DNA from: an uncultured Gemmatimonadales bacterium
Lineage (GTDB): Bacteria; Gemmatimonadota; Gemmatimonadetes; Longimicrobiales; RSA9
Reading direction: 5' to 3'
DNA length: 64,000 nucleotides
Assembly: GCA_963798085.1 (NCBI GenBank)
Contig: CAWCRS010000004.1
Location: 32,001-96,000, forward strand
Under the pieces are notes generated by a model. It saw nothing but the letters and a program-made list of their open reading frames with translations, was not told where the DNA came from and ran no database searches. Shown here piece by piece: positions 2,198-21,987 of the stretch; position 1 is the stretch's first letter; each line of letters starts with the position of its first letter. The position numbers and the translations under genes were made by a program.

Positions 2198-4471
2198 TCA
2201 CGAACTCCTGACCTCCACCACGACCGGCCCGGAGCAGCGAGTCATGCAGGCAAGCCGGTACTCACCGGGCGCCAGGCCTTTGCGACCGAGAGTCTTCTTT
2301 TCCTTGTCGGTCACCTCGTTCAGATGCTCCGCACCCTGCACAATGCGGATCACATCACAGCCGCACATCCCCATCCAGCATTCGTAGTCCATGGCCACGC
2401 CGTGGGCGTCGGCCCACGTCAGCAGCGTCTCTGCCGCATCCGCCGCACCGGCAATGTTCTGACCCTGGAACGTGATGTGTGGCCCGGCCGCGGACGGCGA
2501 GGCGGCGGGCGGCGGCGGCGCACCCGGTGGCGCCGCCGGCTGCGCCGGCTGCACCACCGGCATGGATCCGCTCTTCTCCGGCAAATCCTCGCGCAGCCGG
2601 ATCTGGAACAACTGGTTGCCCACGCGGAGCAGATCGTTGTGCTCGAGCCGCTGCTCGCCATCGATCCTCAGATACGTGCCGTTGCGGCTGCCCAGGTCCT
2701 GCAGCACGAAGTGCATGGCACGCGCCGTGGCCGCGAAATGGAAGCGTGAGAGCGTGAGGTCCCGGTCGTCGAGCGCCACATCGGGCTGCGAAGGACCGCC
2801 GCGCCGTCCGAAAACAACTGTGTTAGTGCCAAGCGGGTAGCGCGCGACCGGTCGGCTGGTGGCGTCGTAATGATCGATGAACAGTCCAGCCGCATCGCCG
2901 CTGGCAACCAGGATCTGGCGCCCTGCGCGCAGCAGCGCGCCAGGCTGCACCGTCAGCGGCGCTTCCGGACGCAACCGCAGGTAGGTGCCGGAGCGACTGC
3001 CGTCGTCACGCAGATGGAACGCGCCGTCACGATGCGAGATGGAAGCGTGATTCTCGGACAGGGCCGTGTCCTGCGCGAAGCTGACATCGCAACCCACACG
3101 GCCGATGGTGGTCACACCGTCAGTGCGCAGCGTGAAGTTCTCCGCATCGACGCCGGTCGGTGTGAGACTCACCAGGATCGCGGCGCGCTCACCGGGCGCA
3201 TCGCCGACTGCCGCCCCACCTGCTGCCGCAGCCCGCTCCGGCGCCAGACCGAGCGCCGCACTGATGCGCGCAATCCCTGCATCCGGCGTCGCACGGGCAA
3301 CCGGCTCCGCATCCCGGATGACGACGTTGACGGTCGCCTGCCCGTCCAGCTTCTGCCGGATCACTTCGGCAACGAAAACGCCATCACGCAGGGAACTCTT
3401 GATGTTGCCGCGATGCTTGACCTGCCGGAACTGATCCGGCGGCGCGCCGAAGTCATCGGTTTCGAGATACACCTGCGAGAGCAGGTCGCCGATCAGGTAC
3501 ACATTGCGCTGCTGCGTTTCGAGCAGCGGTGAGACCACGCACATCTTGCGGTTCTGTGCCGCCGGCACCATGGCAATGCCCAGCTGGCGCAGGAACGCCT
3601 CCGGAATGTCCTCGCCGATGCAGGCAATGCAGCGCGTCTTCTGGAACTCGAGGTGCAGCGTCTCGGGCGGCCGGTCCGCTGCCATTCTGCGATCCACGCG
3701 CAGCGACAGGTACTCGACGCGATCGGGAGCCGTAACGACGCCAACCGGCTCGCTGTTAGGGTGGTAGCGAATGTTGCCGTTGCCGATGTACGCCTCGAAG
3801 AACTCGTCGGCCAGCGCCTTGGAGACACGCGGCATCTTCGAGCCGCGGTACGACCAGAAGACGTGTGACGCCTCCACCGCCTGGATCTTCGCCTTCGAGA
3901 TCGCGATCACGGCCTCGGCTGCGGACGTGCCGCCGCCGATCACGCAGACCGGGCCGGAAACGTAGTTGCCGGCATCATCCAGCCGGTACGCGATACCGTC
4001 GGTGTTGCCGGGAATGTCGAAGCGCCGAGGCACACCTCGCCCGATGGCGAGCACGACGTGACGCGCGTGCAGCAGGCCCGGCTCGCGCGTGCCATGATTC
4101 CAGGTGGACGCGTCCCAGCCGTGGCCGGCCGGCTGCAGTCCTGTCAGCTCGACACTGCATACGACCGGCACGCCAAAGCTGCTGTAGTGCTGTTTCCAGC
4201 GCGCGCAGATCTCGTCCTTGTCGATCGCCTCGAATTGCAGGCCGCTGATGCACTCGTCGCCCGCCGGAAACGCCATGCGGTCGCCACCGCCGAAATCCGG
4301 CAGGATGAGCTTGTCCTTGGGATAATCGCGAATGCGCTTGAGCACATCGTCGAAGTCGATCACGAGTGCCTGCAGTCCCAGCTCACGAGCGCGGAATGCG
4401 GCCGCGGTGCCGGCCGGGCCTGCGCCCACAACGAGCAGATCCAGGATTTCCGGCAGTTCGGCGCGGCTCAT
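2198..4471 (-). CDS. FAD/NAD(P)H oxidoreductase (TrxR-fold, FNR/YpdA-like) fused to two FHA domains and a C-terminal [2Fe-2S] ferredoxin, 757 aa
   Basis: GAGPAG and GGGTSA dinucleotide motifs, YRG, VYLIGD; no TrxR CxxC; FHA motifs GR..S..H..GS(R)(S/N)GT twice; CWMGMCGCD...RLAC. ATG at 4471 overlaps the upstream TGA (ATGA). Confidence 0.85.
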   Translation of the reverse strand: MSRAELPEILDLLVVGAGPAGTAAAFRARELGLQALVIDFDDVLKRIRDYPKDKLILPDFGGGDRMAFPAGDECISGLQFEAIDKDEICARWKQHYSSFGVPVVCSVELTGLQPAGHGWDASTWNHGTREPGLLHARHVVLAIGRGVPRRFDIPGNTDGIAYRLDDAGNYVSGPVCVIGGGTSAAEAVIAISKAKIQAVEASHVFWSYRGSKMPRVSKALADEFFEAYIGNGNIRYHPNSEPVGVVTAPDRVEYLSLRVDRRMAADRPPETLHLEFQKTRCIACIGEDIPEAFLRQLGIAMVPAAQNRKMCVVSPLLETQQRNVYLIGDLLSQVYLETDDFGAPPDQFRQVKHRGNIKSSLRDGVFVAEVIRQKLDGQATVNVVIRDAEPVARATPDAGIARISAALGLAPERAAAAGGAAVGDAPGERAAILVSLTPTGVDAENFTLRTDGVTTIGRVGCDVSFAQDTALSENHASISHRDGAFHLRDDGSRSGTYLRLRPEAPLTVQPGALLRAGRQILVASGDAAGLFIDHYDATSRPVARYPLGTNTVVFGRRGGPSQPDVALDDRDLTLSRFHFAATARAMHFVLQDLGSRNGTYLRIDGEQRLEHNDLLRVGNQLFQIRLREDLPEKSGSMPVVQPAQPAAPPGAPPPPAASPSAAGPHITFQGQNIAGAADAAETLLTWADAHGVAMDYECWMGMCGCDVIRIVQGAEHLNEVTDKEKKTLGRKGLAPGEYRLACMTRCSGPVVVEVRSS

Positions 4472-5403
4472 CGCTGGATCAACTCGAACTCGAAGTAGGG
4501 ACCCAACCGGAATTTCATGCCGGGGACCAGACCGATGCTCTGAATGACATTGCCGTCCACATAGGTACCGTTCACGCTCTGCAGGTCCGTGAGCGTGATG
4601 CCCGTGGGCGCAATCTGCACCACGGCGTGTCTGCGGCCCAGCCACTTCTCCGGATCACGCAGTGCGATGTCGCATTCTTCCCAGCGGCCGATGAAGTTGT
4701 CGCCGGCACGCAGTGTCCATCTCTGCCGACTTCCATCCGGCATTGTCAGTTGCAACTCCAGCACGTGCGCCGGCATGGGCGCAGGCCGTGAGACTGGGGG
4801 CGGTGCGACCGGTGCAGACGGTGCGACTCGCGCAGGTGCTGCAGGCGGTGTGATGGGTGCGGGCGGCGCGACTGGTGGCAGTGCGACTGGTGCAGGTGGT
4901 GATTCCTGCGCAGGCTGCGCTGTTGTTGCAGGTGCAGGGGGTGCAGGGGGTGCAGGGGGTGCAGGCGTCGCGTACGCGACGGCGCGCGGATCAACGATGT
5001 CGTTGAAGCCGAGGTCGACCTGCGTGCTCTGTTCCTTCTGGACTTGCGGTGCCGGCGGCGGCGGTACGGGCGGCGCAACGGCCGGCGCATCCGCTTCACC
5101 GTGCACGAAGATCAGGTCGAGCGTTTCGGCGAGTGTGATGATGTTCACGCGATCCAGACGAGTGGGTGAGGTTACGGGCACGCCATCCACGCGCGTGCCA
5201 TTCCGACTGCCGAGATCCTCGAGGTAGTATTCGCCATCCTGCTGCCGGATGCGGGCGTGGCGGCCGGAAAGGAATGGGAAATCGAGCACGAGATCGTTCT
5301 CCGGGCCTCGGCCCAGACTCGTTTCTCGTCCGAACTCGTGGGTGACACCGGCTATGCTGCCGGTGCGACCGAGCAGCCGCGCTCGAGGCTGGGTCACAAT
5401 CAC
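4468..5403 (-). CDS. Double-FHA-domain protein with Pro/Ala-rich linker, ~311 aa
   Basis: LGRG..LSGRHA..DLGSRNGT and IGRW..GRRHA..DLQSVNGT; GTG start overlaps the upstream stop (GTGA). Confidence 0.85.
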   Translation of the reverse strand: MIVTQPRARLLGRTGSIAGVTHEFGRETSLGRGPENDLVLDFPFLSGRHARIRQQDGEYYLEDLGSRNGTRVDGVPVTSPTRLDRVNIITLAETLDLIFVHGEADAPAVAPPVPPPPAPQVQKEQSTQVDLGFNDIVDPRAVAYATPAPPAPPAPPAPATTAQPAQESPPAPVALPPVAPPAPITPPAAPARVAPSAPVAPPPVSRPAPMPAHVLELQLTMPDGSRQRWTLRAGDNFIGRWEECDIALRDPEKWLGRRHAVVQIAPTGITLTDLQSVNGTYVDGNVIQSIGLVPGMKFRLGPYFEFELIQR

Positions 5404-6980
5404 CTCACCCGTTGATTCTGGCGCGACAGATTGGACCACTGCGCGTGGTCCGGATGGAAGCGGTGGCATTGCGTGCAGTCAGCAGGCGCGCGGCCGCTGC
5501 CGTGACAGCGCCGGCACACCTCAATGCCCGGCAGGTTCTGGATGCTGGCTCGATCCAGCGACGCCGGCACATCCTTGTCACGATCGACCCAGTCGCGGAT
5601 CGGTATCGCGGTGTGGCAGTCCAGACAGCGAGCGTGGATGATGTGGGCGCGGTGGCTGAACTCCGCGCGATTCAGTGTCCGCTGATCCGTCTGCACGCGC
5701 AGAATCGTGGCGCGCTCGACGATGTGACATTCGCGGCACTTCGTGGTCAGCGAGTCTGCCAGCGGTAGGACGGCGCTGTCGGCGAGCGAACCGATGGGAT
5801 CGGCCGCAGGCCGGTCGGCAACGCCCGCAGCGAAGCGACTCAGGTCGACCGGTGCCAGCGGGTCTTCCATGCGGCGCTCGATGACGTCCAGCAGACTCTC
5901 GAGCGAACGGAGTTCGTTCTGCACATCGCGTGACGGCTCGCCACGCAGCGCCTGGATCCAGGAGCGGAGTGTGGCGACGGCCTCCTGCGGCAGCACGCGG
6001 CCCTGGCCGGGCGGCACATCCGCGGATGCGCGCAGCAGCTGCGCCAGCGCGGCACCGGGATAGAGCTGCTGGCGCAGGCGGTTCAGGTTGTAGAGAATCC
6101 ACGGGTCCTCGTGATAGACGGGGCGCTTCAGAATGAATCCGCCCGCCTCCCTGAATTCATTCGAGTCCCAGTAGTTGGCGGCGTCCGCGCCCGGCGAGGA
6201 GGCATTGCGGATATCCTGCAGCGAGAGCACGCCCGCGGCTGTGCCACGCCCGGCCAGCGGCAGCAGCGGCGTCGCGTCCGACGCCGAGAGATGGCAATCA
6301 TCGCAGTGCCGCGCGAACGAGATGGGCTGGAAGAAGCGGCCCTCGGGCTCCGGCTCGTGACAGCGCACGCAGGTCGCTTCCAGATCGGTCAGCGAATCCC
6401 GCTTCATGATCTCGCGAACGTGCCGCACGTGCGTAAACAGCAGGTTAGCAGGATCGGGCACGGAATCAGCAATGAAGTCGAACTGCGGATGCCCGCTGCT
6501 GAAGGAGCCGGCCTTGTGGCAGGCCCGGCAGGTCGCGTCGGTCACCCGCTCGAGCGATGCCGTGCGGCCGCGGTGCTCGTCGTGGCACGCGGCGCACGGC
6601 GTCTCCCGGGTGCTCGGGGCGGAGCGGTCGAAGTCGGCCGACCGGTACACATAGTGGCGGCGGTAACTGTACGTGCCCAGCGGGTCGCCCGCCTTTTCGT
6701 GACAGTTGCTGCAACGCACGTCGGGCGTACCGCCGCCGGGCGCGTGGCAGTTCGCACAATCCCTGGCAAACAGTGCGTGGCTGTCCGAGAGCGGGCCGTT
6801 CGAGACGGCGGCCGCGTTGCCGAAAAGCGTGTCCGCGAGGAAGGGCAGAATCAGCAGCACCATGGCGCCTGCGCCGTACAGGAACAGGCGGCCGCGGCCC
6901 GTGCGCGGCGGATGCCGTGTCGCCACCGGCAGCCGGCTGGGCGTGAAGGCATCGTTCTCGAATCGGCGCTGGTCGCTCAC
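5400..6980 (-). CDS. Membrane-anchored decaheme c-type cytochrome, 526 aa
   Basis: 10 CxxCH motifs (CANCH, CSNCH, CAACH, CRACH, CVRCH, CDDCH, CRECH, CLDCH, CRRCH, CTQCH); N-terminal hydrophobic segment LFLYGAGAMVLLILPFLA. Confidence 0.9.
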   Translation of the reverse strand: MSDQRRFENDAFTPSRLPVATRHPPRTGRGRLFLYGAGAMVLLILPFLADTLFGNAAAVSNGPLSDSHALFARDCANCHAPGGGTPDVRCSNCHEKAGDPLGTYSYRRHYVYRSADFDRSAPSTRETPCAACHDEHRGRTASLERVTDATCRACHKAGSFSSGHPQFDFIADSVPDPANLLFTHVRHVREIMKRDSLTDLEATCVRCHEPEPEGRFFQPISFARHCDDCHLSASDATPLLPLAGRGTAAGVLSLQDIRNASSPGADAANYWDSNEFREAGGFILKRPVYHEDPWILYNLNRLRQQLYPGAALAQLLRASADVPPGQGRVLPQEAVATLRSWIQALRGEPSRDVQNELRSLESLLDVIERRMEDPLAPVDLSRFAAGVADRPAADPIGSLADSAVLPLADSLTTKCRECHIVERATILRVQTDQRTLNRAEFSHRAHIIHARCLDCHTAIPIRDWVDRDKDVPASLDRASIQNLPGIEVCRRCHGSGRAPADCTQCHRFHPDHAQWSNLSRQNQRVR

Positions 6981-6992
6981 CCGGTCCGCCCG

Positions 6993-7847
6993 CTAGTAGT
7001 ACAGAACGAGTGACACGTGCAGCACCACCAGTCCCAGCAGGACCATCGCCACGGGCAGGTGCAACCAGAGCCAGAGCCGCAACCAGCGCTGCAGCGTGTA
7101 GTGCAGGTCCATCTCCAACTTGGTGTTATGGATCTGCTCCAGCTCATCGAGCGCCGGCGCCACGTCCGCGGGCACGGTCTGCCGCAGGATGTGGAACTCC
7201 TGGGAGCGGTAGGACTCCGAGCGACTCCGACCCAGCACGCTGCGCAGCGCGGCCTGCGGCGCCTCCATGTCGGGTGCGATCTCACGCGCGTAGTAGGCCT
7301 GCACCCGCGGACCGGCTCGCGCCGCCACCGCGCTGGCACGCGAGCGCAGCTCCTGCACCAGTTCCGGTATGCGCTGCAGGTTCACTTCGAAGGATGCGCC
7401 CGCATCCAGCAGCCGCGGAATCACGCGTTGCAGTGCCAGTCCGAAAGCGCCCGAGAGCACGACCCACAGACTGATCGTCCACAGCACGATCATCAGCGGA
7501 CCGGACGGGAGGCGGAAGTCCGTGTGCAGTAGCAGCAGCACCAGAAACAGCGTGCCGCCGGCCACGTGCAGCTGGAGATAGAACTGCGCGGGACCCAGAC
7601 TGCGCACGGCGGGCAGTGACCGGCGGATCGAGTAGAGCATCACGACCAGCAGCGTGGCGGCCGCGGCGATGCCGAACCCCTGACCCAGATCCGAGCGTGG
7701 TTGGAAAGCGCGGCCCGCGACGATTCGCAGGAGTATGGCAGTGATACCGATGAGGAGCGCAGTGTCGCGCATGGGTTGCCAGCGGAAGCGTACAGGTCTA
7801 CGCACTCTCCTGCGCACCGCGCCGAGAACCCCTGCAGCCGCCCGCAT
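6993..7847 (-). CDS. Polytopic membrane protein, putative di-heme cytochrome b (ferric-reductase/NOX-type His pairs), up to 284 aa
   Basis: About 5 hydrophobic helices, two of which each carry H-x13-H (His codons at 7568/7526 and 7061/7019). ATG overlaps the upstream TGA (TGATG); alternative start 7772. Confidence 0.7.
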   Translation of the reverse strand: MRAAAGVLGAVRRRVRRPVRFRWQPMRDTALLIGITAILLRIVAGRAFQPRSDLGQGFGIAAAATLLVVMLYSIRRSLPAVRSLGPAQFYLQLHVAGGTLFLVLLLLHTDFRLPSGPLMIVLWTISLWVVLSGAFGLALQRVIPRLLDAGASFEVNLQRIPELVQELRSRASAVAARAGPRVQAYYAREIAPDMEAPQAALRSVLGRSRSESYRSQEFHILRQTVPADVAPALDELEQIHNTKLEMDLHYTLQRWLRLWLWLHLPVAMVLLGLVVLHVSLVLYY

Positions 7848-9502
7848 CAGCGTTTCCTCGACAGCGTTTCGCGCTCCTGGTCCAGCCCCTGGGCCAGCGC
7901 CTTCGCGCGCAGCAGCGCGTCGAACTCGTCCGCCGTGCCGACGCGGTGTGCACAGCCATGCGGGCAGCTGCTCACGCAGGCCGGTCCGGCCGGCGAAGCG
8001 TAGCAGAGATCACACTTGGTGGCGACCCGCCGTTCCTGGCCGCGCAGATGCTCGGGCAGCGCGTTCGACGGCCAGGTCTCGCCCAGCTCGTGCATGATGA
8101 TCGCGTCGTACGGGCAGTTCTCGGCACACGCGCCGCAGCCGATGCAGATACTGGGGTCGATCTCGACGACATTACCCACGTTGGCGCGGCGGATCGCTCC
8201 GGTCGGACAGCCGATCAGGCACACGGGATCGGCGCAGTGATAGCACGCACGCGTGATCAGGAAACCGCTGTACTTCTCGCCTTCCCGCACGAAGCGGGGA
8301 ATGCCGCCGTGCGTACTGGCGCACCCGCGCACGCAGTCATCACAGCGGGTGCAGGTTTCCAGATCGATCACCAGGATGGAGTTGCCCTGGACCAGCCCCT
8401 TGGCCAGCGCGAAATCGACCAGGTCGGAGCGGTGCGGGTGGTGGCGCGTAAAACCGATCTCGCGGATGCGGTCGACGGCCGATTCCCAGACGTACTTCTG
8501 CAGCTCCGGCTGCTGCCCGAATACGGCTGACAGATCGTTATAGCGGATGCGCACCAGTTCGGAATAGCCGACGGAGCGGGTGGTCGTCTGCCACTTCCTC
8601 CCCAGCTCGGGAAGCAGCAGCTCCACTTCGCCCAGCAGTGAGCCCTTGCTCAGGTAGGAGACCGCCATTTCGCCGGCTCCGACCGCCTGCGTCAACTTCA
8701 GGAATCCGGAGCGCACGAGAATCACGTGCTCGGCCAGCTTGCCTTCCGCGGTCACTTCGTCGCCGGGCTGCAGCGATACCAGCTCCACGCGCTCGCACAG
8801 CTTCTCGATGATGGACGCATCGCAGCCGCGCAGCAGGGGTGTGGTGGACAGGTGCTGGCGCAGGGTGCGCACGCGATACAGCTCGTCCAGCCGCTCGCGC
8901 AGTTTCCTCGCCTTGCGCCGCAGCTTGCGCAACGCGGGCAGCCGGATCTGTACCAGCCGGCAGGCGCTGGCGGTGCGTGCCGTCACCGATTGCGGCCAGC
9001 CGTTCAGTGCGCCGATCTCGCCGAAGATGTCGCCGGCCGCGAGCCGCATGCGGCCACCGCGGGGCAGATCGAAATCCGCACTCGCCAGGAATGTGATGGG
9101 CGCGTTCTGCGCAACGTTCCTCTGCGCGAGCGGCGACACGACATTCCCGGCGAGCGTGTCCGTTGTGGGGATGGAACTCATGATGCGCGTCGGAAAAATC
9201 GGCTTGCCCGACTCGGCATCACTGGCCAGGTACAGCTCGACTTCGCCGCTGTCGATCCAGAATGCCAGGTCGACGTAGGTGCCTTCCTCGAAAAGGATCG
9301 CGCCCGCGCGCCACGTCGCGATGGAAACATCCGCGCTGATGTCCTTGAGGAAATCGTCGTCGAGGCCATCGAAGATGGGATAACGGCGCAGCTCCGACGG
9401 ATACATCACGCTCGAGATGTCGACGATGCCGGTGTGGTCTCCCCACGATGACCAGCGATCGGTGTGCAGCTGCCGGCGCATCACGAACGTCGGTGATTCC
9501 AC
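7847..9502 (-). CDS. Two cyclic-nucleotide-binding (CAP_ED) domains fused to a 4x[4Fe-4S] DmsB/NrfC-type ferredoxin domain, ~551 aa
   Basis: cNMP-like motifs 'ILFEEG...GEV...GDIFGEIGAL..PQSVTA' and 'VTAEG...SGFL...GSLLGEVELL'; Cys clusters CTRCDDCVRGC, CYHCADPVCLIGCP, CIGCGACAENCP, CDLC..PACVSSCP. GTG at 9502 follows GAGG. Confidence 0.85.
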   Translation of the reverse strand: MESPTFVMRRQLHTDRWSSWGDHTGIVDISSVMYPSELRRYPIFDGLDDDFLKDISADVSIATWRAGAILFEEGTYVDLAFWIDSGEVELYLASDAESGKPIFPTRIMSSIPTTDTLAGNVVSPLAQRNVAQNAPITFLASADFDLPRGGRMRLAAGDIFGEIGALNGWPQSVTARTASACRLVQIRLPALRKLRRKARKLRERLDELYRVRTLRQHLSTTPLLRGCDASIIEKLCERVELVSLQPGDEVTAEGKLAEHVILVRSGFLKLTQAVGAGEMAVSYLSKGSLLGEVELLLPELGRKWQTTTRSVGYSELVRIRYNDLSAVFGQQPELQKYVWESAVDRIREIGFTRHHPHRSDLVDFALAKGLVQGNSILVIDLETCTRCDDCVRGCASTHGGIPRFVREGEKYSGFLITRACYHCADPVCLIGCPTGAIRRANVGNVVEIDPSICIGCGACAENCPYDAIIMHELGETWPSNALPEHLRGQERRVATKCDLCYASPAGPACVSSCPHGCAHRVGTADEFDALLRAKALAQGLDQERETLSRKR

Positions 9503-9509
9503 AAGCGCC

Positions 9510-11669
9510 TCAGTTTCCGTGTCCCAGCAGCGCGTACAGCCGTTCCAGCCGCTGCTTGACCAGCAACAGGATCTGCTCCGTGGAGAGCGTGTCCGCTCTC
9601 TCCGGCAGGGGCGGCAGTTCCACGCGCGTGTCGGCGTTCGCCGTGCCCCGGCGCGAACTCGTGGCGGACGGTCGCGGCGGCAGCGATGCCGTGGGTGGCG
9701 CGTCGCTCCCTCCGGTGGCAGTCGCCAAACTCTGTGTTTGGGGGCGCTCCGTCCGCGGCTGCGCCGCACCGCTGCTCGTGACTGCCGCCGCAGTCACGGC
9801 CACTACCGTGACCTGCGGAATCGGGCGACTGGATACCACACTGGCGAACGCCGCGCGCAGGCGAGCGTCGTCGGCCGCGGTGTATCCGGCGGCGCCGCGC
9901 TTCGCCCGCCCGCGCTCCGCGCCCTTGTCGGGGAAATGCCTGATGCGGTGATTGCCGTCGACGAAATCGTACTTGTCGCCCGATGTGTGGCCGGCGGCGA
10001 GCAGTCGCTCATCGGTGATGCGATGGCAGTTGCCGCAGGTGCGTGCGCGCACCTCGGCATCCTTCAGTGCCGTCATGCCCAGCTGCGGATTGCCGCCCTT
10101 CTCGTGCGGCTCGAGCCACTCCGAGCTGGGTCCGTGGCAGCGCTCGCAGCTGACACCGGTCAGCACTTCCGCATGCGGTGCATCACTGGTCGCCGTACCA
10201 TGACAGTTCATGCAGATCTGGTCGGCGCGCGTCATGCGGTCGGGCCCGATGCCGTACAGCGTGGCGATCTCGCGCGCCTTCGGCGCCTTGTTGAGCAGCG
10301 GGTCCGCCGAACCCTGATGCTTGTCACGCGCCCACCAGTCGTCGGCATCGCCATGACACTTGGCACAGTCCGGCAGTGTCGTGCGATAGCGGCTGTCGAC
10401 GGCGGGGAACCACTCGGGCCGCGTGCGGATGCTGCCCGGCAGGGCCGCGGCGCCCGGTGGGCGCGCTGTCGCGGCCGTGGCCGCAGCACCTGCCGCCCGC
10501 CCTGCGCCCGCACTGGCGGCGTTGGCGACATTGGCCGAATCTGCGTGCGCGGCGCCGCCGGCACCCGTGTCCGCAGCCGCGATCAATTCCGGCGGGGCAC
10601 CGCCCGCGATCAGCGCATCCAGTGCAGCGAGATCCGCACCATTGCTGGTGGTGGCGAAGTGCTCGCCGATCACGCGGATCTGATCGGCTGCGCTGCTCAG
10701 GCTGGCTTTGTTGTCCGGGGCCAGACGAAGCCTGGCGCCCAGCACGAGGATCTCACGCAACGCAGGCACGGCGGCCGTGCGCGCCACCTCATCCAGCTCG
10801 CGATAACTCTGCTGTACGCGGCGCAGCATCGACTTGGAGTAGCGGTCATCCGTCGTGGCGACAGCCAGGCCGCGCAGCGCGAACTCGTATGACAGAATCC
10901 GACCCACCGCGAACATGAGCCGTCTGCGCTCCGCCGTCGGCTCGCGATTCTCCGCCGCACCACCCCACTGCTGCTGCAGAAAGTTGTGCCGGATCCTGCC
11001 CACGTTCGCGAGCAGATCGAAACGCGCCGATCCGGTTGTGTGGCCGCCCTTGTTCACCAGTTCCTCGATGGGAACCGTGTGACACTCGAAGCAGTTCGCG
11101 GCTACGGCGTAGAGATCGCCTGAGGGGCGCAGCATACCGCCCTTGATGCTCTGCTCGATGCGCTGCCGGCGGTGTTCGGGCGCTTCGTCTTCCGGCTTCT
11201 TTATTCCTTCGCCCCACTTGTTGTGCACGTTCACCCAGTCTGCAGCCGGACCGTGGCAGGACTCGCAGGACACGCCGGCGATCGCAGTCAGCTCAGGCCC
11301 CACTGTGTAATGACAGCGCAGGCAGAGGCTCTCCTTGCGTTTGGTGACGACGAGGCCCATGCGCTGCAGGATGTCGTGCGCGCCATCCGACCGGTGCAGA
11401 CTGTCGAAGCCGGTCGCATGCTTCGTCATGCGCCAGACTTCGTATTCTGAGGAATGACATTCGCCGCACGGCGTGCGCGTATCGCGCGCCGACAGCACGA
11501 TCCTGGATGGATCGATGCGCAGGTATGGCGAATTCCGGTAATCCACCTGCTGCTGGGCGTGCAGCGGTGTTACGCGAAGCAGCAGAACGACGCAGCCGGC
11601 CAATACCCGACCCACCCGGCGGAAGCCGACACCACGGCAGCCACTAGGGAGCATTCCTGCAGACTGCAT
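9510..11669 (-). CDS. Exported octaheme c-type cytochrome made of two tandem tetraheme (c554/c552-4-like) units, 719 aa
   Basis: Signal peptide (..LLLRVTPLHA-QQ); 8 CxxCH; internal duplication GVSCESCHGPAADW / GVSCERCHGPSSEW; Ala-rich linkers. Confidence 0.88.
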   Translation of the reverse strand: MQSAGMLPSGCRGVGFRRVGRVLAGCVVLLLRVTPLHAQQQVDYRNSPYLRIDPSRIVLSARDTRTPCGECHSSEYEVWRMTKHATGFDSLHRSDGAHDILQRMGLVVTKRKESLCLRCHYTVGPELTAIAGVSCESCHGPAADWVNVHNKWGEGIKKPEDEAPEHRRQRIEQSIKGGMLRPSGDLYAVAANCFECHTVPIEELVNKGGHTTGSARFDLLANVGRIRHNFLQQQWGGAAENREPTAERRRLMFAVGRILSYEFALRGLAVATTDDRYSKSMLRRVQQSYRELDEVARTAAVPALREILVLGARLRLAPDNKASLSSAADQIRVIGEHFATTSNGADLAALDALIAGGAPPELIAAADTGAGGAAHADSANVANAASAGAGRAAGAAATAATARPPGAAALPGSIRTRPEWFPAVDSRYRTTLPDCAKCHGDADDWWARDKHQGSADPLLNKAPKAREIATLYGIGPDRMTRADQICMNCHGTATSDAPHAEVLTGVSCERCHGPSSEWLEPHEKGGNPQLGMTALKDAEVRARTCGNCHRITDERLLAAGHTSGDKYDFVDGNHRIRHFPDKGAERGRAKRGAAGYTAADDARLRAAFASVVSSRPIPQVTVVAVTAAAVTSSGAAQPRTERPQTQSLATATGGSDAPPTASLPPRPSATSSRRGTANADTRVELPPLPERADTLSTEQILLLVKQRLERLYALLGHGN

Positions 11670-11675
11670 CGCCTC

Positions 11676-13253
11676 TCAGAGATTCAGAGTCAGGTCGAAG
11701 CGCCCGAATACGCGCATGCCGTTGCTCACGAAGTCCCAGGCCGTCGACCCGTCCACGACGAACAGCACCCGGCGATGGAACGCCGCCTGGTAGCGTGCGC
11801 CCAGGCCGGCCAGATTGCTGCCGCTGTTCAGCTTCTTCATGCGCGCGCGGCCGCCCACCTCGAAAACCAGCTGCTGCCGCGTGTCATGCAGGAAGATCTG
11901 ATGGCCGAAGCTGCCGCCCAGCGCATTGTCCGCCTGGTTGCTGAGTCCTGCCCCCACGCGACCAATGCCGGGCGCGGCGAAGAGGATCCCCGTCTGACCC
12001 AGCGGGCCGCCCGACGACGGGCCGCGCGCGGCGGAGCGGAACCGGTCGATCCCCACGAACGTGTCGAAATACCAGAAGTTGTCACTGTGCCTGGACGTCC
12101 ACGAGAACTGGTCGTGCAGCAGAACGCCGCGCGTGTTGAACGCGGTTTCACCACCTATGGGGAACGAGCCCAGTACGCGGAAAACATTGTTGGCGCGGCC
12201 CCAGCGGCGGATGTCGCCGATGCCGGCGTAGATGCCATCGCCGGAGGACGTGCTGCCGTTCACGAACGCCGCATCCAGCTGCAGCGTAGTGGAACGCAGG
12301 TCCATTTCCGAGAACAGGCCGAACAGCGAAGCCGAGTCGTCGCGGATGTTCCCCTGCGCACTCTGCCGGTCGATCTGACCCCATGAGTAAACCGCTGTTA
12401 TACGCGTGTTGACCACCGAGCCGAGTTTCATGTTGGCGCGCGTCAGGCCCACCATGTCCAGCGCATTCTCATTCACCAGCAGACCATCCTGGAAGTCGAG
12501 CGGCTGACGGCCAACCGAGAAGTAAATGTCCCAGGATCCGCTGTCGTCGTTGTCGATGTTGGGGAACAGCTCACCGAAATCGCCCTCGAAGAACAGCGTG
12601 CGCACCACACCGTTCAGCTCCGAGTGGAACGATTCCTTTTCTCCCTTCGCGTTGAGCGGCGGATTCGTGAACGTGTAGCTGGTGAAGCGGCCGTCGCGGT
12701 CGAGCGGGCGCAGTCCCACCAGCACGCGCTCGGTCTGCGTCAGATAGAGATTGCCGAAGAGATCGAAGCGACCTGCCGCCTCGGCCAGATCCGTGCTGCC
12801 CGGATTCGTGTGTCCACCCTGCGCCGCCGTGCGTAGCGTGCCGAAAGCCAGAAACGCCGGCTGCCACACCGCGCCGCCGGGGAGCTTGATGCCCTTGTGC
12901 AGCGTTCCCGTCCCCAGGAATGGCTCGCCCAGCTCGATGAGCGCATGCGGCCGCTGGGCGATCTCCGCGAGAGGCAGGCACTTGTCCGACAGCCGGCTTT
13001 CACCGCCCTTCTCCTGCTCCTTCGCGCCCTCGCTGCATTCTTTCAGAAACCGGTCTTTCTCGCCCGGCTTCGCCTGCTGCTGTTGCGACTGTTGCGACTG
13101 TTGCTGCTGGGCGCCGAGCGGCAGGGCCGTGAACAGAAGCACGGCCGCGGCGGCGACAGTCGCCCGGCGCGTCCCGTGCATCGGCCAGCGTCGCGCGCCG
13201 CGGCGCAATGGCCGGCGCGCCCCCGGCATGAGGACCCCCAGCCGCGCGCTCAT
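11676..13253 (-). CDS. Putative outer-membrane beta-barrel protein (porin-like), ~525 aa
   Basis: Signal peptide (..LLFTALPLGA-QQ); alternating aromatic/Gly strands; C-terminal amphipathic strand RVFGRFDLTLNL; ATGA overlap with upstream gene. Confidence 0.65.
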   Translation of the reverse strand: MSARLGVLMPGARRPLRRGARRWPMHGTRRATVAAAAVLLFTALPLGAQQQQSQQSQQQQAKPGEKDRFLKECSEGAKEQEKGGESRLSDKCLPLAEIAQRPHALIELGEPFLGTGTLHKGIKLPGGAVWQPAFLAFGTLRTAAQGGHTNPGSTDLAEAAGRFDLFGNLYLTQTERVLVGLRPLDRDGRFTSYTFTNPPLNAKGEKESFHSELNGVVRTLFFEGDFGELFPNIDNDDSGSWDIYFSVGRQPLDFQDGLLVNENALDMVGLTRANMKLGSVVNTRITAVYSWGQIDRQSAQGNIRDDSASLFGLFSEMDLRSTTLQLDAAFVNGSTSSGDGIYAGIGDIRRWGRANNVFRVLGSFPIGGETAFNTRGVLLHDQFSWTSRHSDNFWYFDTFVGIDRFRSAARGPSSGGPLGQTGILFAAPGIGRVGAGLSNQADNALGGSFGHQIFLHDTRQQLVFEVGGRARMKKLNSGSNLAGLGARYQAAFHRRVLFVVDGSTAWDFVSNGMRVFGRFDLTLNL

Positions 13254-15080
13254 CGGGTGAGATCCACGGTGCGGTCCCACAGAACCTGCGCGCCGTTCAC
13301 CACGGCTGTGGCCACGGAGCGCGGGGACATGTAGTAGTCGAAACCGATGTCCTGGATTTCGCTGATCAGGTTCACCGGCACCATCTGCGCGATGAGCTGG
13401 ATGTGCGCGCGATACGGTCCGCGGCTGCTGCGCAGCGCCGCCGCGTCCACCTTGTATTCCGCCCAGTCGCTCTTCTCCGGCACAATGGTCATGCGGTGCT
13501 TGCGCGCGCCATCGGGCCGCGCCAGCAGTACCGTGGCGCGCGTGGATGGTCGCAGGAAAGGCAAGGGGCTGGGCGAGTAGTTCACCGCCAGCACCTGCTC
13601 GCGCTCGCCTCCGCGCAGCATGCGTGTCAGGAATTTCGACTGCAGACTGAACAGTGCCTTGTCGCGCGGCAGCTCGCCGTTGTGCACGTAGCGCGAGTGC
13701 GGATCACGCAGATCGCCGTTGGGATCGCGGTCACCCGACCGGAAGACCACCTTGCCATCGGCATCCAGCACGTCCACCTGCAGGAAGACGAGGCGTTCCG
13801 CATCGAAACCGGTGGGCACGTTGTGGCCGTTGGTGCCGTTCCTCACTTCCACCCTGAACTCCACGCCATTCTGCGCCCGCCCGGCCCACCTTCACATCGC
13901 CCAGGATGTAGCCGTTGCGCAGCAGCACCAGTCGCTGCTGTGCCGCCTTTGCCAGCAGCGTCTGATTCGCCTGGATGACTTCGCGCGCGTCAATGCGATC
14001 ATCGGCGGTGCGCCAGCGGTCGGGAAACGTGGTGCCCTGCGGAACGTGCTGCTCGAACGCGTCGGTTCCCCAGCCGGCGGCCGCGTCGAAGCTCAGCCAT
14101 TCCCGGATGGTGGCCAGCTCCGCGGCGCGCACGTTGTGGGGAAAGATGCCGGGGTGTATGACCGGATAGTCGGGCCCCACGAACATGTGGTTAGTGCGCC
14201 TGCGGATGCGCGTGGGCCGGCCACCCACGATCGCGGCCGCGGCGGAATCGTAGCCCGATACCTTGCCGGGCTCCTTCCCCATGTGACAGTCCTGGCAGGA
14301 TATCTTCTCGCCCGACGCCGGTGACGCCTTGTATTCGCTGAACGCTTCTTCCAGCCGGAACCCGTTCACCAGGTTGACATCATGGCAGGCGCCGCAGAAG
14401 CCGGAGGTACGGATCTGCGGCAGCACGCCGGCGTCGGCGTGAATGGCGCGGCCGGCCTGGCCGCGCTTCGCGTTCACACTGTACTGCGGATCGCCGATCA
14501 CGCGTTTCACCTCGGCGCCGCCCGTGGGGCCGTAGACGGGCGTGAAGATGTCGCCCTCGACGATGGCCAGCCGTCCGCTCGCCTTGCCGTTGGGCCGGTC
14601 CAGACGGTGACAGACGATGCACGTCACGCCTTCACGCGATGTCGGGTACCGGTCCATGTTCGTCATGAATTCGGGCTCGCGCAGGTTCATGCCGACCGGT
14701 GTGTGGCAGCGGATGCAGAAGTCGCCGTTCGTGCCGTTCGTCAGCTTCAGGATCTTGCCGTGCATGGCATTGAACACGGGACTCATCTGCGCGTAGGCGT
14801 GCTGCGAGACCGACCATTCGCGGTACTGATCGGGATGACAGTTGGCGCAGAGGTTGGCTGAGGGGAAGCGGTCTTCATCGTCGAACGCGCGAACGTGCGC
14901 CAGTGCGATCGCAGTGTCGCTCAGCTGGGCCGTCGGCGGGGCCGCGCCATTGGCCTGGGCAAGGAGCCGGCACGGGCGTGCGGCGAACAACGCCGCGGCA
15001 ACCACGAGCGTGCAAGCCCACCGAGCGCTCGCACCGCGACGGCCCGCTCCGGATACGTTCCGGGTACGCCTGATCCGCAT
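13250..15080 (-). CDS. Exported pentaheme c-type cytochrome with C-terminal Ig-like GHxxPTG domain, ~609 aa; split by a +1 frameshift near 13875 in this sequence
   Basis: ORF 13731-15080 has a signal peptide and 5 CxxCH; ORF 13250-13864 continues with 'VEFRVEVRNGTNGHNVPTG'. Removing one base near GGGCGGGCG joins the two. Confidence 0.8.
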
Positions 15081-15159
15081 GGCAGTATCTCAGCGTGAGG
15101 GAGGCCGGGTTTTCAGACTGTCGGCGCAGGCGATGCGCCTTGCAGCAACGCTCGCCGGC

Positions 15160-16296
15160 TCATTGCGTACCGCCGAAGCGAACTGTGGCGGATGCTTCAA
15201 TGCCGGTGAAAGCGCTCTCCACACCTTCTGTCGCGATGACTTTTCCGAAGCGCGCGCGCAGGGTTGGCAGCAGCGTCAGATTGCGTGCGTGCGCTTCCGC
15301 TCCCAGGCCCACTCCCAGCGCGTAACCCTGCCCCTGTCCGTCGGCACTCCGGAACACGCGTGCGTCGACACCAGGGAGCAGCGCGCCCGAGCCTGCGGGA
15401 AGACGCAGCGCACTGCCCGTCAGAATCAGATCCTGCGCCGGCGAGTCGCTGCCGCTGCCGAAGAGCGATGGGTCGAGGAACGTTCCGCGCTGGCGTCGCA
15501 GCCAGCCGCCATACAGCACGGCGCTGGCCCTCGCCGTAGCCGCGAACGCGTAGCTGAGCATGGCCTGCAGACGGTTGCCCGAGCGGTAAAGGTTCTGCCC
15601 GCTCAGCTGATCGTTCCCGTACCGCTGCAGACCTAACTGCAGAGTAGCCTTGCCCGACTCGCCAATGCTTCGATCGAGCGCGAGCCTGGCCTGGAAGCGG
15701 TTGCCCGGCAGATAGGCGCGCTGGTCCTCCGCAAGCGGCTCGAACTCGCGACCCAGCCCGTAGCCCAGACTCAGGCCCACACCGGTGCCGTTCACTGTCG
15801 TGAGCGCCGTGCCTTCCAGCGCGACGCCGCCACCCGAGCCCCAGTTCGAGATGCGGAAGGGCAGCAGGTCCGCGGCGATGGCGCCTGCCACCTCCGCTTC
15901 TTCCAGCGACTGTGTGGCGCTGCCAGTGGGCGCGGACCAGGTGGCCGCGATCAGGAAGCGGTCCTGTGCGACGGACAGCACGGCGCGCACGTCCGTGTCG
16001 GTGAGGCCGGACAGTTTCGCCTGCGAGCCATCGGGCCGGCTCAGCGTTCCCGAAGCATACGCCCCGGTCACCTCCAGGCTGAGCGTGCGCAGCAGCGCCA
16101 CCCGCCCGCCGAAGGGCAGGGTCATGAGCGACAGCGCTTCCAGGCCGGCTGCGGCCGCCGTGGCGAAGCTGTAGTGTTCGAAGGATGCGCCCGCGCCCAC
16201 CGTGGCGCGCTGCCCAAACACAGCGTTAGAGGCCGCCAGCAGCAGGCCCAGGGCGGCGCCCAGCGGGCGCGCACACACGATCCGAGATCGCCTCAT
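15160..16296 (-). CDS. Putative outer-membrane beta-barrel protein, 378 aa
   Basis: Signal peptide; strand-like alternating pattern throughout; ends GIEASATVRF. Confidence 0.6.
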   Translation of the reverse strand: MRRSRIVCARPLGAALGLLLAASNAVFGQRATVGAGASFEHYSFATAAAAGLEALSLMTLPFGGRVALLRTLSLEVTGAYASGTLSRPDGSQAKLSGLTDTDVRAVLSVAQDRFLIAATWSAPTGSATQSLEEAEVAGAIAADLLPFRISNWGSGGGVALEGTALTTVNGTGVGLSLGYGLGREFEPLAEDQRAYLPGNRFQARLALDRSIGESGKATLQLGLQRYGNDQLSGQNLYRSGNRLQAMLSYAFAATARASAVLYGGWLRRQRGTFLDPSLFGSGSDSPAQDLILTGSALRLPAGSGALLPGVDARVFRSADGQGQGYALGVGLGAEAHARNLTLLPTLRARFGKVIATEGVESAFTGIEASATVRFGGTQ

Positions 16297-16304
16297 GCGC
16301 CCCC

Positions 16305-17600
16305 TCAGTTCCGGCGGATGATGATTTCCAGGACAGTGCTCTTGCCAATGCCTTCAGTGCCCAGCACTTCGGGCGCGGCATCACGGCCGTTGGCGCCGGG
16401 CACCAGCGCCTGCAGGACCGCCAGCGACGCGGCCGGGCCCGCGGCGCTGGCCGCAGCACGTTGTCCCAGCTGGTCCGTAGTAGTGGCCTGCGCGCTCGCG
16501 GCGCGCGTGGCCACATCCGCGTTGCGGCGGGCCGCGGCGAAGCCACGATCCAGGCTGGCCGCGCGCTGGAACTGCTGCGCCGCTGCGCCGTAGTCTGCGC
16601 GGTCCTGCGCCTCCAGACCCCGACCGAACGCGAGCACGGCCTGCAGGTTCTGTGTGGGCCGCTGATTCACACGCTCCCGCTCCGCCACCGTCAGCTCGAT
16701 GCCCAGCGAGCCGTAGATGTCGAGCGCCAGCCGCTTCTCCAGATCGAACAGCCTGTTGAGCGCGTCCTGCTGCTGCACCGTGCGCGCTGCCGCGCCTGCA
16801 TTGGCCGCGTCCACTACCGCCGCCTGCAGCTGCAGCTGGGACTGATCGCCCGCGATGCGGCCCTGCACGATGCGCCCGGCGCCCAGCAGCCGACCGCTCC
16901 TCGCCGCTGTCGCCGGATCCACCAGACCGGTCCGGTCCAGCTTCAGCTCGTCCAGCAGGAATTGCACGCGCGAACGTTCCAGCACGGTGAGCCGCTGCGT
17001 CTGCGAGAGGTCCGTCACCAGCATCTCCGCGAGTGCGCGGCTGAGCGGTTCCAGCTCGGCATTCCCACCGTTGTAGAGGAACGGGAAAATGGCCACCGAC
17101 GCAGGCGCCAGCCGGCTCGTGCCCAGCTCCGCTTCGCGCGCCAGCGCATCGCGCACCGCCGCCTCCAGCTCCTTGCGCTCGATCAGCGGCATGCGTGCCT
17201 GGACCTCGTTCTTCAGGCCCTTCGACTTCTCGTCCTGCAAGTAGCGCGTGTACAGCTGCCTTGCCTGCGCGTACCGACCCAGGTCCTCGTACGTCAGCCC
17301 GAGGAAAAGGACGCCCTGCGAGTTCTGCATGCGCAGCGCGACCGCCCGCTCCAGCACCTGCCTGGCCTGGTCCGTGCGCTTCAGCCGGCGATACACCTGA
17401 CCCAGCTGCAGCAGAGCGTCGAAGTCCGTCGAGTCCTTCGCCACACTCGCCTCGAGCGCACGCACCGCGCCGGGTGATGGCGCCGCCGTCGTCTGCACCG
17501 CGGGCGCGCAACCCGCCAGCAGCGCCGGCAGTACCAGCGCGAGCGGCATGCCGCGGCCGGGCGAGAAGTTCCGGCGCAAGCGGGTTCCCAGCGGCTCCAT
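16305..17600 (-). CDS. TPR + CsgG/FlgO-like lipoprotein, ~431 aa
   Basis: AGGAGG RBS before ATG 17600; lipobox LLAG-C; TPRs (DALLQLGQVY.., LFLGLTYEDLGRY); 'VAIFPF...LAEMLVTDL...LTVLER...AARSGRLLGAGRIVQG' CsgG/FlgO/TolB-N-type signature. Confidence 0.8.
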   Translation of the reverse strand: MEPLGTRLRRNFSPGRGMPLALVLPALLAGCAPAVQTTAAPSPGAVRALEASVAKDSTDFDALLQLGQVYRRLKRTDQARQVLERAVALRMQNSQGVLFLGLTYEDLGRYAQARQLYTRYLQDEKSKGLKNEVQARMPLIERKELEAAVRDALAREAELGTSRLAPASVAIFPFLYNGGNAELEPLSRALAEMLVTDLSQTQRLTVLERSRVQFLLDELKLDRTGLVDPATAARSGRLLGAGRIVQGRIAGDQSQLQLQAAVVDAANAGAAARTVQQQDALNRLFDLEKRLALDIYGSLGIELTVAERERVNQRPTQNLQAVLAFGRGLEAQDRADYGAAAQQFQRAASLDRGFAAARRNADVATRAASAQATTTDQLGQRAAASAAGPAASLAVLQALVPGANGRDAAPEVLGTEGIGKSTVLEIIIRRN

Positions 17601-19268: not shown

Positions 19269-19276
19269 GGAGCGCG

Positions 19277-21912: not shown

Positions 21913-21987
21913 GCAAACACTCCGTTATGGGGCTGCTCGCGCACGCTGGACTCGCCTGCGGGCGAGGCGACTACGCCGGAAACCCGG

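Follow-up and report, generated by a model that had tools for sequence, protein, structure and literature searches.

A putative FHA-bearing variant of the PCC4/ptd multihaem cytochrome cluster in an uncultured Gemmatimonadales bacterium

Eight genes at positions 2198-15080 of the window (the whole 64,000-nucleotide stretch of DNA that was analysed) form an operon conserved in many phyla. Judged from their sequences, they are an FHA-bearing, phosphorylation-linked variant of a cluster already named PCC4 or ptd, a match drawn from gene content and descriptions rather than from alignment to the published reference proteins. The preliminary description had presented them as a new system, a claim that this match does not support. 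In our preferred reading, with a probability of roughly 0.55, this FHA variant is fed by NADPH and switched by phospho-Thr, and its pentahaem cytochrome PtdA reduces a small molecule under the pore PtdB.

The operon and its neighbours

Re-reading of the sequence gave ten co-directional genes, all on the minus strand, at 2198-17600, and 23 CxxCH motifs (10 + 8 + 5) across three cytochromes, as had been described. When the 10-, 8- and 5-haem proteins were shuffled 2000 times each, the maximum number of CxxCH motifs was 2, 1 and 1, respectively. With the starts chosen, the intergenic gaps are 8, 79, −4, 6, 7, −1, 12, 2 and −4 nt, counted from the 17600 end, and the 79-nt gap is the boundary of two units rather than a gap inside one system. 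The Pfam matches are Pyr_redox with two FHA domains and Fer2, two FHA domains, two cNMP domains with Fer4, c554/c7-type cytochromes, and TPR with CsgG. No molybdopterin or hydrogenase subunit was found among the eight genes, in agreement with the earlier statement.

The two genes beyond the 79-nt gap lie outside the ptd core. They encode a TPR and CsgG-like lipoprotein with the lipobox LAGC (16305..17600, minus strand) and a second, putative barrel (15160..16296, minus strand), which has no Pfam match and whose Atlas neighbours are hypothetical. This pair was rejected as part of ptd: it was present in 0 of the 23 loci whose sequence extends 2.5 kb or more upstream of the pentahaem gene, and three more such pairs occur elsewhere in the host genome. 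From the ten-gene system first proposed, the eight-gene core stands and these two members are removed. The pair adjoins the T6SS tail in 4 of the 16 T6SS loci examined and lies beside tssB in one further genome (G048). The second barrel is the partner of the TPR lipoprotein, unrelated to PtdB and present in several copies in the genome.

The same eight genes were found in 25 of 80 related genome loci and the inner five in 50, many of the 80 being cut by contig ends. In a species-level genome scan, at least 563 of the 600 pattern matches listed encode a relative of the Fe-S subunit. At about 17-18 related loci PtdA and PtdB are replaced by an HbpS-like lipoprotein, an unrelated barrel and a 1,240-aa decahaem; the type B barrel has no profile similarity to PtdB. 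Some related loci show no outer part. With its outer part alternative or missing, the inner module is not bound to any single terminal enzyme.

On the same strand, 330 nt from the ten genes, lies a T6SS tail (17931..25968, minus strand) made of tssM, a small lipoprotein, a Ser/Thr kinase, a PP2C and an FHA/trypsin-like protease. A promoter and terminator scan found one terminator-like hairpin, at 17653-17634, with 1.5 expected by chance. The preliminary description took the module for a sensor or redox weapon that is coupled to the T6SS and controlled by this kinase and phosphatase, a view we hold to be very improbable. The position and the short gaps favour such a coupling, as do the TssC matches in 12 of 51 other module-bearing genomes, including three close Gemmatimonadota, and a genome (G041) where both the module and the T6SS tail end at contig breaks. 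A weak excess of TssF was also seen in Rhodothermales, the order of G047 (9 of 22 module-bearing genomes vs 32 of 179 others; odds ratio 3.2, Fisher p 0.02, the kin not being independent), but of the nine double positives 8 have module and T6SS on different contigs, and in the remaining 1 they are separated by 174 kb. The window's own order argues against coupling: TssF was found in 66 of 300 genomes, none of which gave a match to the module Fe-S gene, and the 2 genomes with the Fe-S gene gave none to TssF; these protein searches scored the top 4-7 candidates per genome, many genomes are incomplete, and not found is not the same as absent. The T6SS tail occurs without the module in a same-genus genome (G001), and it is conserved in relatives lacking the module.

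No tss match occurred at 0/80 genome loci and 0/80 metagenome loci of the module, where flanks of 10 kb cannot reach a tssM placed as in the window (13 kb away). Genome-level searches and T6SS-side stretches were therefore added, and the stretches from 16 module-free and 9 double-positive genomes gave no match to a ptd gene. Furthermore, 23 Ser/Thr kinase matches were found in the host genome, and an FHA protein is already part of the T6SS tail. Homologous operons thus occur mostly without T6SS, and the position of the module behind the T6SS tail, seen in this genome only, looks like a local accident. The literature searched contained no experimental study of PCC4/ptd and no link of PCC4/ptd to T6SS.

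The inner electron chain and its cytoplasmic input

The motifs of the inner genes support, at the level of sequence, the path first described, which starts at a cytoplasmic NAD(P)H flavoprotein, runs over Fe-S centres and a membrane protein of the di-haem-b type and ends at periplasmic cytochromes. The last gene (2198..4471, minus strand) encodes a TrxR/YpdA-type FAD:NAD(P)H oxidoreductase with two FHA domains and a 2Fe-2S domain, in the role of PtdC. An Asp occupies the third ligand position of the 2Fe-2S domain. Thioredoxin-reductase-type disulfide chemistry was considered as a candidate activity: the reductase has a CIAC motif, which lies after the NAD(P)H motif and not at the place of the TrxR redox pair. 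In other lineages an unrelated FNR-type 2Fe-2S/FAD/NAD(P)H reductase fills the same operon slot.

The PtdE-like cytoplasmic protein (7847..9502, minus strand) has two cNMP-fold domains and all four 4Fe-4S Cys groups. PtdF, the PCC4 inner-membrane protein (6993..7847, minus strand), has five hydrophobic segments, the last two of which (TM4 and TM5) are separated by a long helical insert, and carries two [WY]x3Hx13H motifs and SGxxG, which read YLQLH..H, SGAFG and WLWLH..H in the window. Across 68 sequences three of the motif His are invariant and one is conserved in at least 90%, which suggests that PtdF binds two b haems. Its match in fold to cytochrome b561 (5oc0; Z 8.5) does not rise above the noise for helical bundles, and Foldseek found no match at E ≤ 0.001. 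Fusion of PtdF to PtdE in 6 loci supports a contact between the two proteins. The PtdG-like decahaem (5400..6980, minus strand; 10 CxxCH) has an N-terminal membrane anchor, and the exported octahaem (9510..11669, minus strand) appears as a doubled PtdD with two tandem c554-like tetrahaem domains; the profiles also match the 4- and 10-haem genes of divergent clusters.

In the preferred reading, the TrxR-type flavoprotein, whose motifs are in place, would take electrons from NADPH and pass them through its 2Fe-2S centre to the four 4Fe-4S clusters of PtdE and the two putative b haems of PtdF. The anchored decahaem and the c554-like octahaem would then carry them to PtdA, probably in this order.

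Between the decahaem and the reductase lies a two-FHA adaptor with a Pro-rich linker (4468..5469, minus strand; true start probably ~5397). In the second FHA of the reductase, G, R, S and N are conserved in 45/45 and H in 38/45; in that of the adaptor, G, R and H are found in 42/42, S in 41/42 (the window has Gly) and N in 40/42. The first FHAs of both proteins are more worn than the second. A kinase lies on the same strand inside or just after the operon at 14 of 50 evaluable loci, where the density of kinase genes would predict ~0.5% (at most 1.5%); these 14 loci are not independent, and 36/50 have no kinase by the rule applied. Intact FHA motifs and kinases often inside the operon support the phospho-Thr input that had been suggested, as far as sequences can. 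A trans-membrane electron chain under direct phospho-control would, to our knowledge, be unusual in bacteria.

The accompanying proposal of cyclic-nucleotide gating is not supported. The phosphate-binding Arg of both cNMP pockets of PtdE, in alignment with the Arg of CRP-like, PKA and CNG domains, is replaced by Gln171 and Trp304, invariant in 37/37. Four divergent PtdE homologues keep Arg in at least one cNMP domain. In the present lineage the flux would then be switched by phospho-Thr binding to FHA, not by cAMP or cGMP.

The cytoplasmic parts, which together bear four FHA and two cNMP-fold domains, could also belong to a sensor with little net flux, in which PtdA and PtdB would sense a ligand or the outside redox state, the chain would carry that state inward, and the FHA/cNMP domains would signal to kinase networks. 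Such a role is consistent with neighbouring genes for kinases and PP2C, and for a cyclase-FHA protein at one locus, as well as with the HbpS-like haem protein of the alternative outer module and the possibility that the PtdA hairpin gates the pore. Nevertheless, 23 c haems, two b haems and five Fe-S clusters would be costly for a sensor, and divergent clusters with the FNR-type reductase, without FHA/cNMP Pfam match in the scanned reductase or decahaem, keep the redox chain. We consider a sensor rather unlikely.

The pentahaem cytochrome PtdA under the barrel PtdB

The PtdA-like pentahaem c cytochrome (13250..15080, minus strand) has a c552/ExtKL-MccSep-like fold and a C-terminal Ig-like domain. 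In the window its gene is frameshifted and split into ORFs of 449 aa (15080-13731) and 204 aa (13864-13250). Because a near-identical 465-base contig (run X1; depth 4.8, one other difference) has one base fewer at 13869 and ptdA is a single frame in 27 related loci, the frameshift near 13869 is most likely an assembly error; a programmed frameshift was ruled out on the same grounds. The best PDB match of PtdA is 5ze8, both domains being aligned. Alignment with T. tepidum c552 gave E 3e-23 and that with MccSep a weak E of 0.002-0.06. A plasmid search with PtdA as query returned four matches only, all distant.

A conserved Glu, residue 244 (codon ~14351), lies at or next to the position of the haem-2 Cys of MccSep, the weak MccSep alignment setting this Cys on Leu, one residue before the Glu. 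A Phe (~13807) stands at the Sec position. The haem-4/5 segments carry Glu in 67/72 and Cys in none, and the 27/27 intact PtdA relatives have no Cys outside CxxCH, with Leu-Glu and Phe/Ser at the MccSep catalytic positions. Besides the four His expected as distal ligands, two more in PtdA (249, 401) are invariant, so that haem 2 may be bis-His and non-catalytic.

The model of the PtdB-like outer-membrane barrel (11676..13253, minus strand; start codon uncertain) has a pLDDT of 92 and ~18 strands counted from DSSP. Its best fold match is OpdQ (Z 27.4, rmsd 3.0, 327 aligned); MOMP, Occ and AlgE were also found, and MtrB is not among the fold matches listed. PtdB models as an 18-stranded OprD/AlgE-type solute channel, not as an MtrB sheath. 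The barrel was folded with PtdA of a relative (L021), without haems, and the predicted complex scored 0.86 vs 0.00 for the best control, the score mark being reached by 116/157 solved pairs vs 2/215 mismatched pairs. The model has 342-349 contacts, at least 92% of which agree between runs, and a partner pLDDT of at least 87. The PtdA residues lining the lumen are those of the Ig-domain hairpin 427-478, with no CxxCH among them, and the haem domain contacts the barrel rim. PtdA is thus predicted to dock beneath PtdB via a haem-free hairpin. PtdA-PtdB fusions were found (L057, L064, L073, P0241, P0266), and the pair stands without other ptd matches in four 21-kb loci.

These models speak against the MtrAB-like wire to the surface of the preliminary description, the barrel being predicted as an 18-stranded one for small solutes with no haem motif in the lumen contacts of the model. 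A true EET conduit, with Fe(II)/Mn(II) oxidation or mineral reduction and quinone exchange at the membrane protein, was the original proposal for PCC4 and appears unlikely here. A porin, three multihaem cytochromes and an Hx13H membrane protein would suit it, as would the haem domain of PtdA predicted at the barrel rim, and a soluble mediator could cross the pore. The operon has no extracellular cytochrome, however, and the module is spread widely across phyla in which we know of no metal respiration. The strand number is also lower, 18 vs the 26 described for MtrB (PMC7198977), and the hairpin in the lumen has no CxxCH. The reported presence of PCC4 in Fe(II) oxidisers, from which EET was proposed (PMC5566968), counts in favour of the conduit.

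Under the preferred reading of a small-molecule reductase, PtdA would cap the periplasmic face of the PtdB channel, inserting its haem-free hairpin, and would act as terminal catalyst on a small molecule entering via the pore. Catalysis may take place at the haem equivalent to the MccSep catalytic haem, in a Glu-containing, Cys/Sec-free pocket; N-oxides, peroxide or an oxyanion are guesses at the substrate. A bolder combination, in which a new class of pore-coupled haem enzyme is under T6SS kinase/phosphatase control and fighting on contact would switch on redox chemistry in the envelope (to remove peroxide or N-oxides, for example, or as a redox attack), is quite improbable. Its enzyme-under-pore half alone falls a little short of an even chance; the T6SS coupling on top is the unlikely part.

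PCC4/ptd is widespread, has no known function in the published accounts and has been taken as a marker of extracellular electron transfer. Should PtdB prove to be a solute channel to which a pentahaem enzyme docks, this reading is wrong and there is a new periplasmic redox reaction to find. Testable features are the complex of PtdA with PtdB, the Glu found at the Cys site of MccSep, the 2Fe-2S centre with its Asp ligand and the proposed replacement, specific to this lineage, of a cyclic-nucleotide input by phospho-Thr.

Comparison with PCC4, ptd, MccSep and MtrAB

PCC4 (He et al. 2017, PMC5566968) and ptdABCDEFG (Elbon 2024, 10.1101/2023.11.21.568154) are both presented in their published accounts as in silico descriptions. 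With PCC4 Subgroup II, as described there, the present operon shares the porin, the 5- and 10-haem cytochromes, a c554-type tetrahaem unit and a five-helix inner-membrane protein with two Wx3Hx13H motifs and SGxxG, the Fe-S gene lying directly upstream. Divergent clusters of Subgroup I layout, without Fe-S gene, were retrieved with profiles of the present family. Compared with the PCC4 description, the tetrahaem is here doubled to 8 haems, a TrxR-type reductase with two FHAs comes last, a separate two-FHA adaptor is present and other phyla are involved; the barrel, proposed for PCC4 as part of an EET conduit (PMC5566968), is read here as a solute channel with a docked enzyme.

The ptdABCDEFG cluster, the function of which its authors (Elbon, Stewart, Glass; 10.1101/2023.11.21.568154) state to be completely unknown, is described with a c552-related pentahaem bearing a C-terminal beta-sandwich, a porin, a FAD/NAD(P) oxidoreductase, a tetrahaem, a cNMP + 4Fe-4S protein, a ferric-reductase-like membrane protein and a decahaem, and its gene order A-B-D-E-F-G is kept here. 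In contrast to that account, the reductase is here the last gene of the operon and is unlikely to be an orthologue of PtdC, FHA domains are present (FHA is unmentioned in the main text of 10.1101/2023.11.21.568154), the cNMP pockets have no Arg, and PtdE has four cluster motifs instead of two.

MccSep/ExtKL with the porin ExtI of Geobacter sulfurreducens (10.1101/2025.11.18.688581; PMC5877670) resembles PtdA, in the published descriptions, in its periplasmic pentahaem cap, its Ig-like stem with extended hairpin, its GHxxPxG loop and its gene near a porin. MccSep is reported to be a true enzyme, a polysulfide/selenite reductase with a haem-2 Cys and a Sec/Cys in the GHxxPxG-U loop (10.1101/2025.11.18.688581). 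Polysulfide reduction by this mechanism is unlikely in PtdA because Sec/Cys is missing at the catalytic positions (Phe; Leu-Glu), the sequence similarity is weak and the electron feed is different, PtdA being supplied by a dedicated NAD(P)H-to-periplasm chain. MtrAB shares the barrel gene beside multihaem cytochrome genes; there, however, as reported (PMC7198977), 26 strands form a sheath around a decahaem, whereas here ~18 predicted strands receive a haem-free hairpin.

Extent of the multihaem operon

The ten genes proposed as one module all lie on the minus strand and are separated by short gaps, as the preliminary description stated, and its count of 23 CxxCH motifs was recovered as 10, 8 and 5 in three proteins, far more than expected by chance (at most 2 per protein, 2000 shuffles each). 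Pfam and NCBIfam returned the same domains that it had named. The GC content of the ten-gene region equals that of the genome, and the nearest named homologues are from Gemmatimonadota. The cytochrome PtdA has the five haem motifs claimed for it but is not a single intact gene in the window, being split over two frames. This frame break is treated as an assembly error, because a near-identical contig of sequencing run X1 (one contig, depth 4.8; the run is perhaps from the same source as the window) has one base fewer at base 13869 and because the gene is a single continuous frame in 27 related loci. Other probable assembly indels are an extra base relative to X1 at 17911, tssK and tssL in one ORF (25980-28100) and DUF2169 genes present as overlapping pieces (52296-55449 and 57852-60085).

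A profile of PtdE, the Fe-S protein, was run against species-level genomes, and 80 loci, many of them cut by contig ends, were examined from Gemmatimonadota, Rhodothermales, Ignavibacteria, Acidobacteriota, KSB1, Calditrichia, Zixibacteria, Nitrospirota and others. The full set of eight genes, pentahaem to flavoprotein, was matched in 25 loci and the inner five in 50, mostly in the order of the window. The TPR/CsgG lipoprotein and second, 370-aa barrel-like protein (15160-17600), counted as members in the preliminary description, were found upstream of the module in 0 of the 23 loci having at least 2.5 kb there. Three further copies of the pair occur in the host genome (C4:29211-31502, C5:633895-636341 and C7:845822-848047). 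The pair also adjoins T6SS loci in several relatives: among 16 T6SS loci examined in relatives that lack the module, 4 have it behind the tail genes, two of these oriented as in the window. From its absence, its extra copies and its T6SS-side company, we therefore take the 79-nt gap to be where a T6SS-side block adjoins a separate operon of eight genes (2198-15080, minus strand).

Inner electron chain and regulatory domains

The flavoprotein carries GxGxxG and GGGxxA motifs followed by an Arg, which we take to be the pattern of NADPH-using TrxR-type enzymes, hence the NADPH reading. In its C-terminal 2Fe-2S domain (2198-2480) the apparent third ligand is Asp, which replaces the third Cys in 44/44 motif matches of related loci (C-x4-C-G-x-D), whereas the FNR-type versions retain Cys. 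In other lineages the cluster has a TrxR-type domain fused to the Fe-S protein, or else a 2Fe-2S/FAD/NAD(P)H reductase of FNR type that is unrelated to the window's enzyme; what is conserved in function is thus the pyridine-nucleotide end. FNR-type enzymes usually move electrons outward from NAD(P)H, and outward flow is favoured here. Six loci encode the Fe-S protein and the membrane protein PtdF as one fused chain. The PtdF model has five helices (pLDDT 91), and cytochrome b561 (Z 8.5) and FdnI (Z 7.3), which are among its fold neighbours, score within the noise for helical bundles, so that the two b haems it would carry rest on its His motifs. Electrons derived from NADPH would pass from the flavoprotein to the Fe-S protein, the membrane protein and the periplasm.

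At the sequence level, the regulatory domains combine a lost cNMP Arg with intact FHA motifs. The phosphate-binding Arg of both cNMP-fold domains is replaced, by Gln171 and Trp304, which are invariant in 37/37 close homologues, and the cyclic-nucleotide gating claimed for the operon is probably absent in this lineage. Four divergent homologues retain the Arg, and such control may therefore hold in other lineages; the cNMP-fold domains possibly bind another ligand. The phospho-Thr residues of the second FHA domain are kept almost invariably in both FHA proteins, and phospho-Thr binding would switch the flux. Of the 50 loci that could be evaluated, 14, spread over several phyla, have a same-strand Ser/Thr kinase within the operon or immediately after it, against an expectation of about 0.5% (from kinase density, 32 of 34 genomes sampled). 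A general link to Thr phosphorylation, part of what was first proposed, is supported by the FHA motifs and adjacent kinases, but a tie to the T6SS kinase is not: the host genome has 23 kinase matches. A convergent operon faces the module in one related locus (L101:843-10429; G017:C103) and encodes a PP2C, a Ser/Thr kinase, a caspase-domain protein, a barrel and a cyclase-FHA fusion; TssC and TssF are both unmatched in that genome.

Relation to the neighbouring T6SS

That the module is a T6SS-coupled system is suggested by its position on the same strand as, and close to, the T6SS tail (17931-25968), by TssC in 12 of the 51 further genomes that carry the module, three of the 12 being close relatives, and by TssF in 9/22 module-bearing Rhodothermales against 32/179 others (p 0.02, kin not being independent). 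However, these Rhodothermales double positives are unlinked, on separate contigs in 8 cases and 174 kb apart in one. In the window's order, TssF occurs in 66/300 genomes, none of which has the Fe-S gene, while the two genomes with that gene both lack a TssF match; in the phylum sample, which overlaps with the order sample, the corresponding counts are 29 and 1. A genome of the same genus (G001) has the T6SS tail, and the module was not found in it. Within 10-kb flanks, tss matches numbered 0/80 in genome loci and 0/80 in metagenome loci (45 of the latter at least 9 kb long). In one genome (G041) contigs break at both the module and the T6SS tail, which may be adjacent there. The neighbourhood analysis, which had been proposed as a check, and the genome searches show that conserved T6SS linkage is lacking; coupling is very improbable, and the arrangement in the window is most likely a local insertion.

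The proteobacterial-type TssF was matched in 41 of 201 Rhodothermales genomes searched. The window's T6SS tail has an FHA-protease fusion where the FHA protein of a T6SS usually stands, and the genes for kinase, PP2C and FHA/membrane/trypsin-like protease (17931-21912) are all present in 6 of 16 relative loci.

Predicted docking of the pentahaem and comparison with PCC4/ptd

The core barrel model has about 18 strands (DSSP count, pLDDT 92). Its structural matches are channels of the OprD/Occ, MOMP and AlgE kinds (E 7e-10; Z 27.4 with rmsd 3.0 for 327 aligned residues), whereas the barrel MtrB is described as having 26 strands (PMC7198977). Co-folded with the intact pentahaem of a related locus (L021), the window barrel scored 0.86 against 0.00 for the best control, haems being absent from the model; such a mark is attained by 116/157 solved and 2/215 mismatched pairs. 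The model has 342-349 contacts, with at least 92% agreement across runs and partner pLDDT of at least 87. In the predicted complex, the turns of one face of the barrel (periplasmic by strand count) and alternating strand residues contact the segments flanking haems 2 and 3 and an Ig-domain hairpin without haem motif (427-478). This docking agrees with natural pentahaem-barrel fusions of about 1,100 aa (L057:2627-5962, L064:4357-7731, L073:4207-7590, P0241 and P0266) and with stand-alone pairs of the two genes. Of the complete NAD(P)H-to-surface path claimed earlier, the motifs of the inner chain remain; the surface conduit gives way to a predicted 18-strand channel with a docked pentahaem and a haem-free hairpin, and a function as EET conduit seems unlikely to us.

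In some loci the inner chain is joined to a different outer module, made up of a haem lipoprotein resembling HbpS, a barrel-like protein of unrelated sequence and a decahaem of 1,160-1,280 aa that contains LVIVD repeats (loci L025, L028, L029, L037, L039, L040, L044, L054, L059, L065, L086, L089, L090, L098, L099 and others).

PtdA groups with c552 and weakly with MccSep/ExtKL; PMC11976967 likewise places these proteins together. MccSep is presented as a periplasmic polysulfide and selenite reductase, with Cys239 as ligand of haem 2 and Sec325 serving it from a GHxxPxG loop (bioRxiv 10.1101/2025.11.18.688581). PtdA keeps this loop but has Phe (or Ser) in place of Sec, and Leu-Glu at the Cys position of MccSep and c552 (register uncertain by one residue); no Cys outside CxxCH occurs in 27/27 relatives. 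Glu stands at that place in 67 of 72 segments of the wider family, and a distal Glu can render a haem catalytic, as described for cytochrome P460 (PMC6457333), which serves here only as an analogy. We infer that the Glu-flanked haem 2 is catalytic, although either of two extra invariant His could occupy the site instead. In Geobacter, extKL shares a cluster with extI, which encodes a porin; loss of extI is reported to lower selenite and tellurite reduction (PMC5877670), a precedent for pairing a porin with a pentahaem enzyme. An NADPH-fed, phospho-switched form of PCC4/ptd, in which the pentahaem would catalyse at haem 2 under the 18-strand channel, is our preferred explanation (probability roughly 0.55); that the module is a sensor rather than an enzyme we consider doubtful, if slightly less so than the conduit.

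In the ptd cluster, as described, a beta-sandwich pentahaem akin to T. tepidum c552 is accompanied by a porin and an FAD/NAD(P) oxidoreductase, by tetrahaem and decahaem cytochromes, by a protein with cNMP and 4Fe-4S domains and by a membrane protein resembling ferric reductases; the function of the cluster is called "completely unknown" (Elbon et al., bioRxiv 10.1101/2023.11.21.568154). PCC4, as described, has the same content; its membrane protein has five helices, two Wx3Hx13H motifs and SGxxG (He et al. 2017, PMC5566968). A literature search, with subscription journals mostly outside its scope, found no experimental study of PCC4/ptd. A second multihaem cluster of the host genome (C7:483600-491200; L104:7400-15198), with an Hx13H membrane-protein paralogue, cytochromes of 19 and 27 haems, a 599-aa ORF that has no match in Pfam and a 4Fe-4S/FAD reductase, is a candidate PCC3, fitting the description in PMC5566968.

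Like that of ptd, the window pentahaem has T. tepidum c552 as its best PDB match; like that of PCC4, the membrane protein has Wx3Hx13H-type and SGxxG motifs, conserved in relatives, and profiles made from the window's family retrieve clusters of the PCC4 Subgroup I layout. Compared with the published descriptions, the eight-gene unit matches PCC4/ptd in every tested feature. Rather than the novel T6SS weapon first proposed, it is a variant of a kind already named in print, a widespread unsolved system for which concrete tests are now available.
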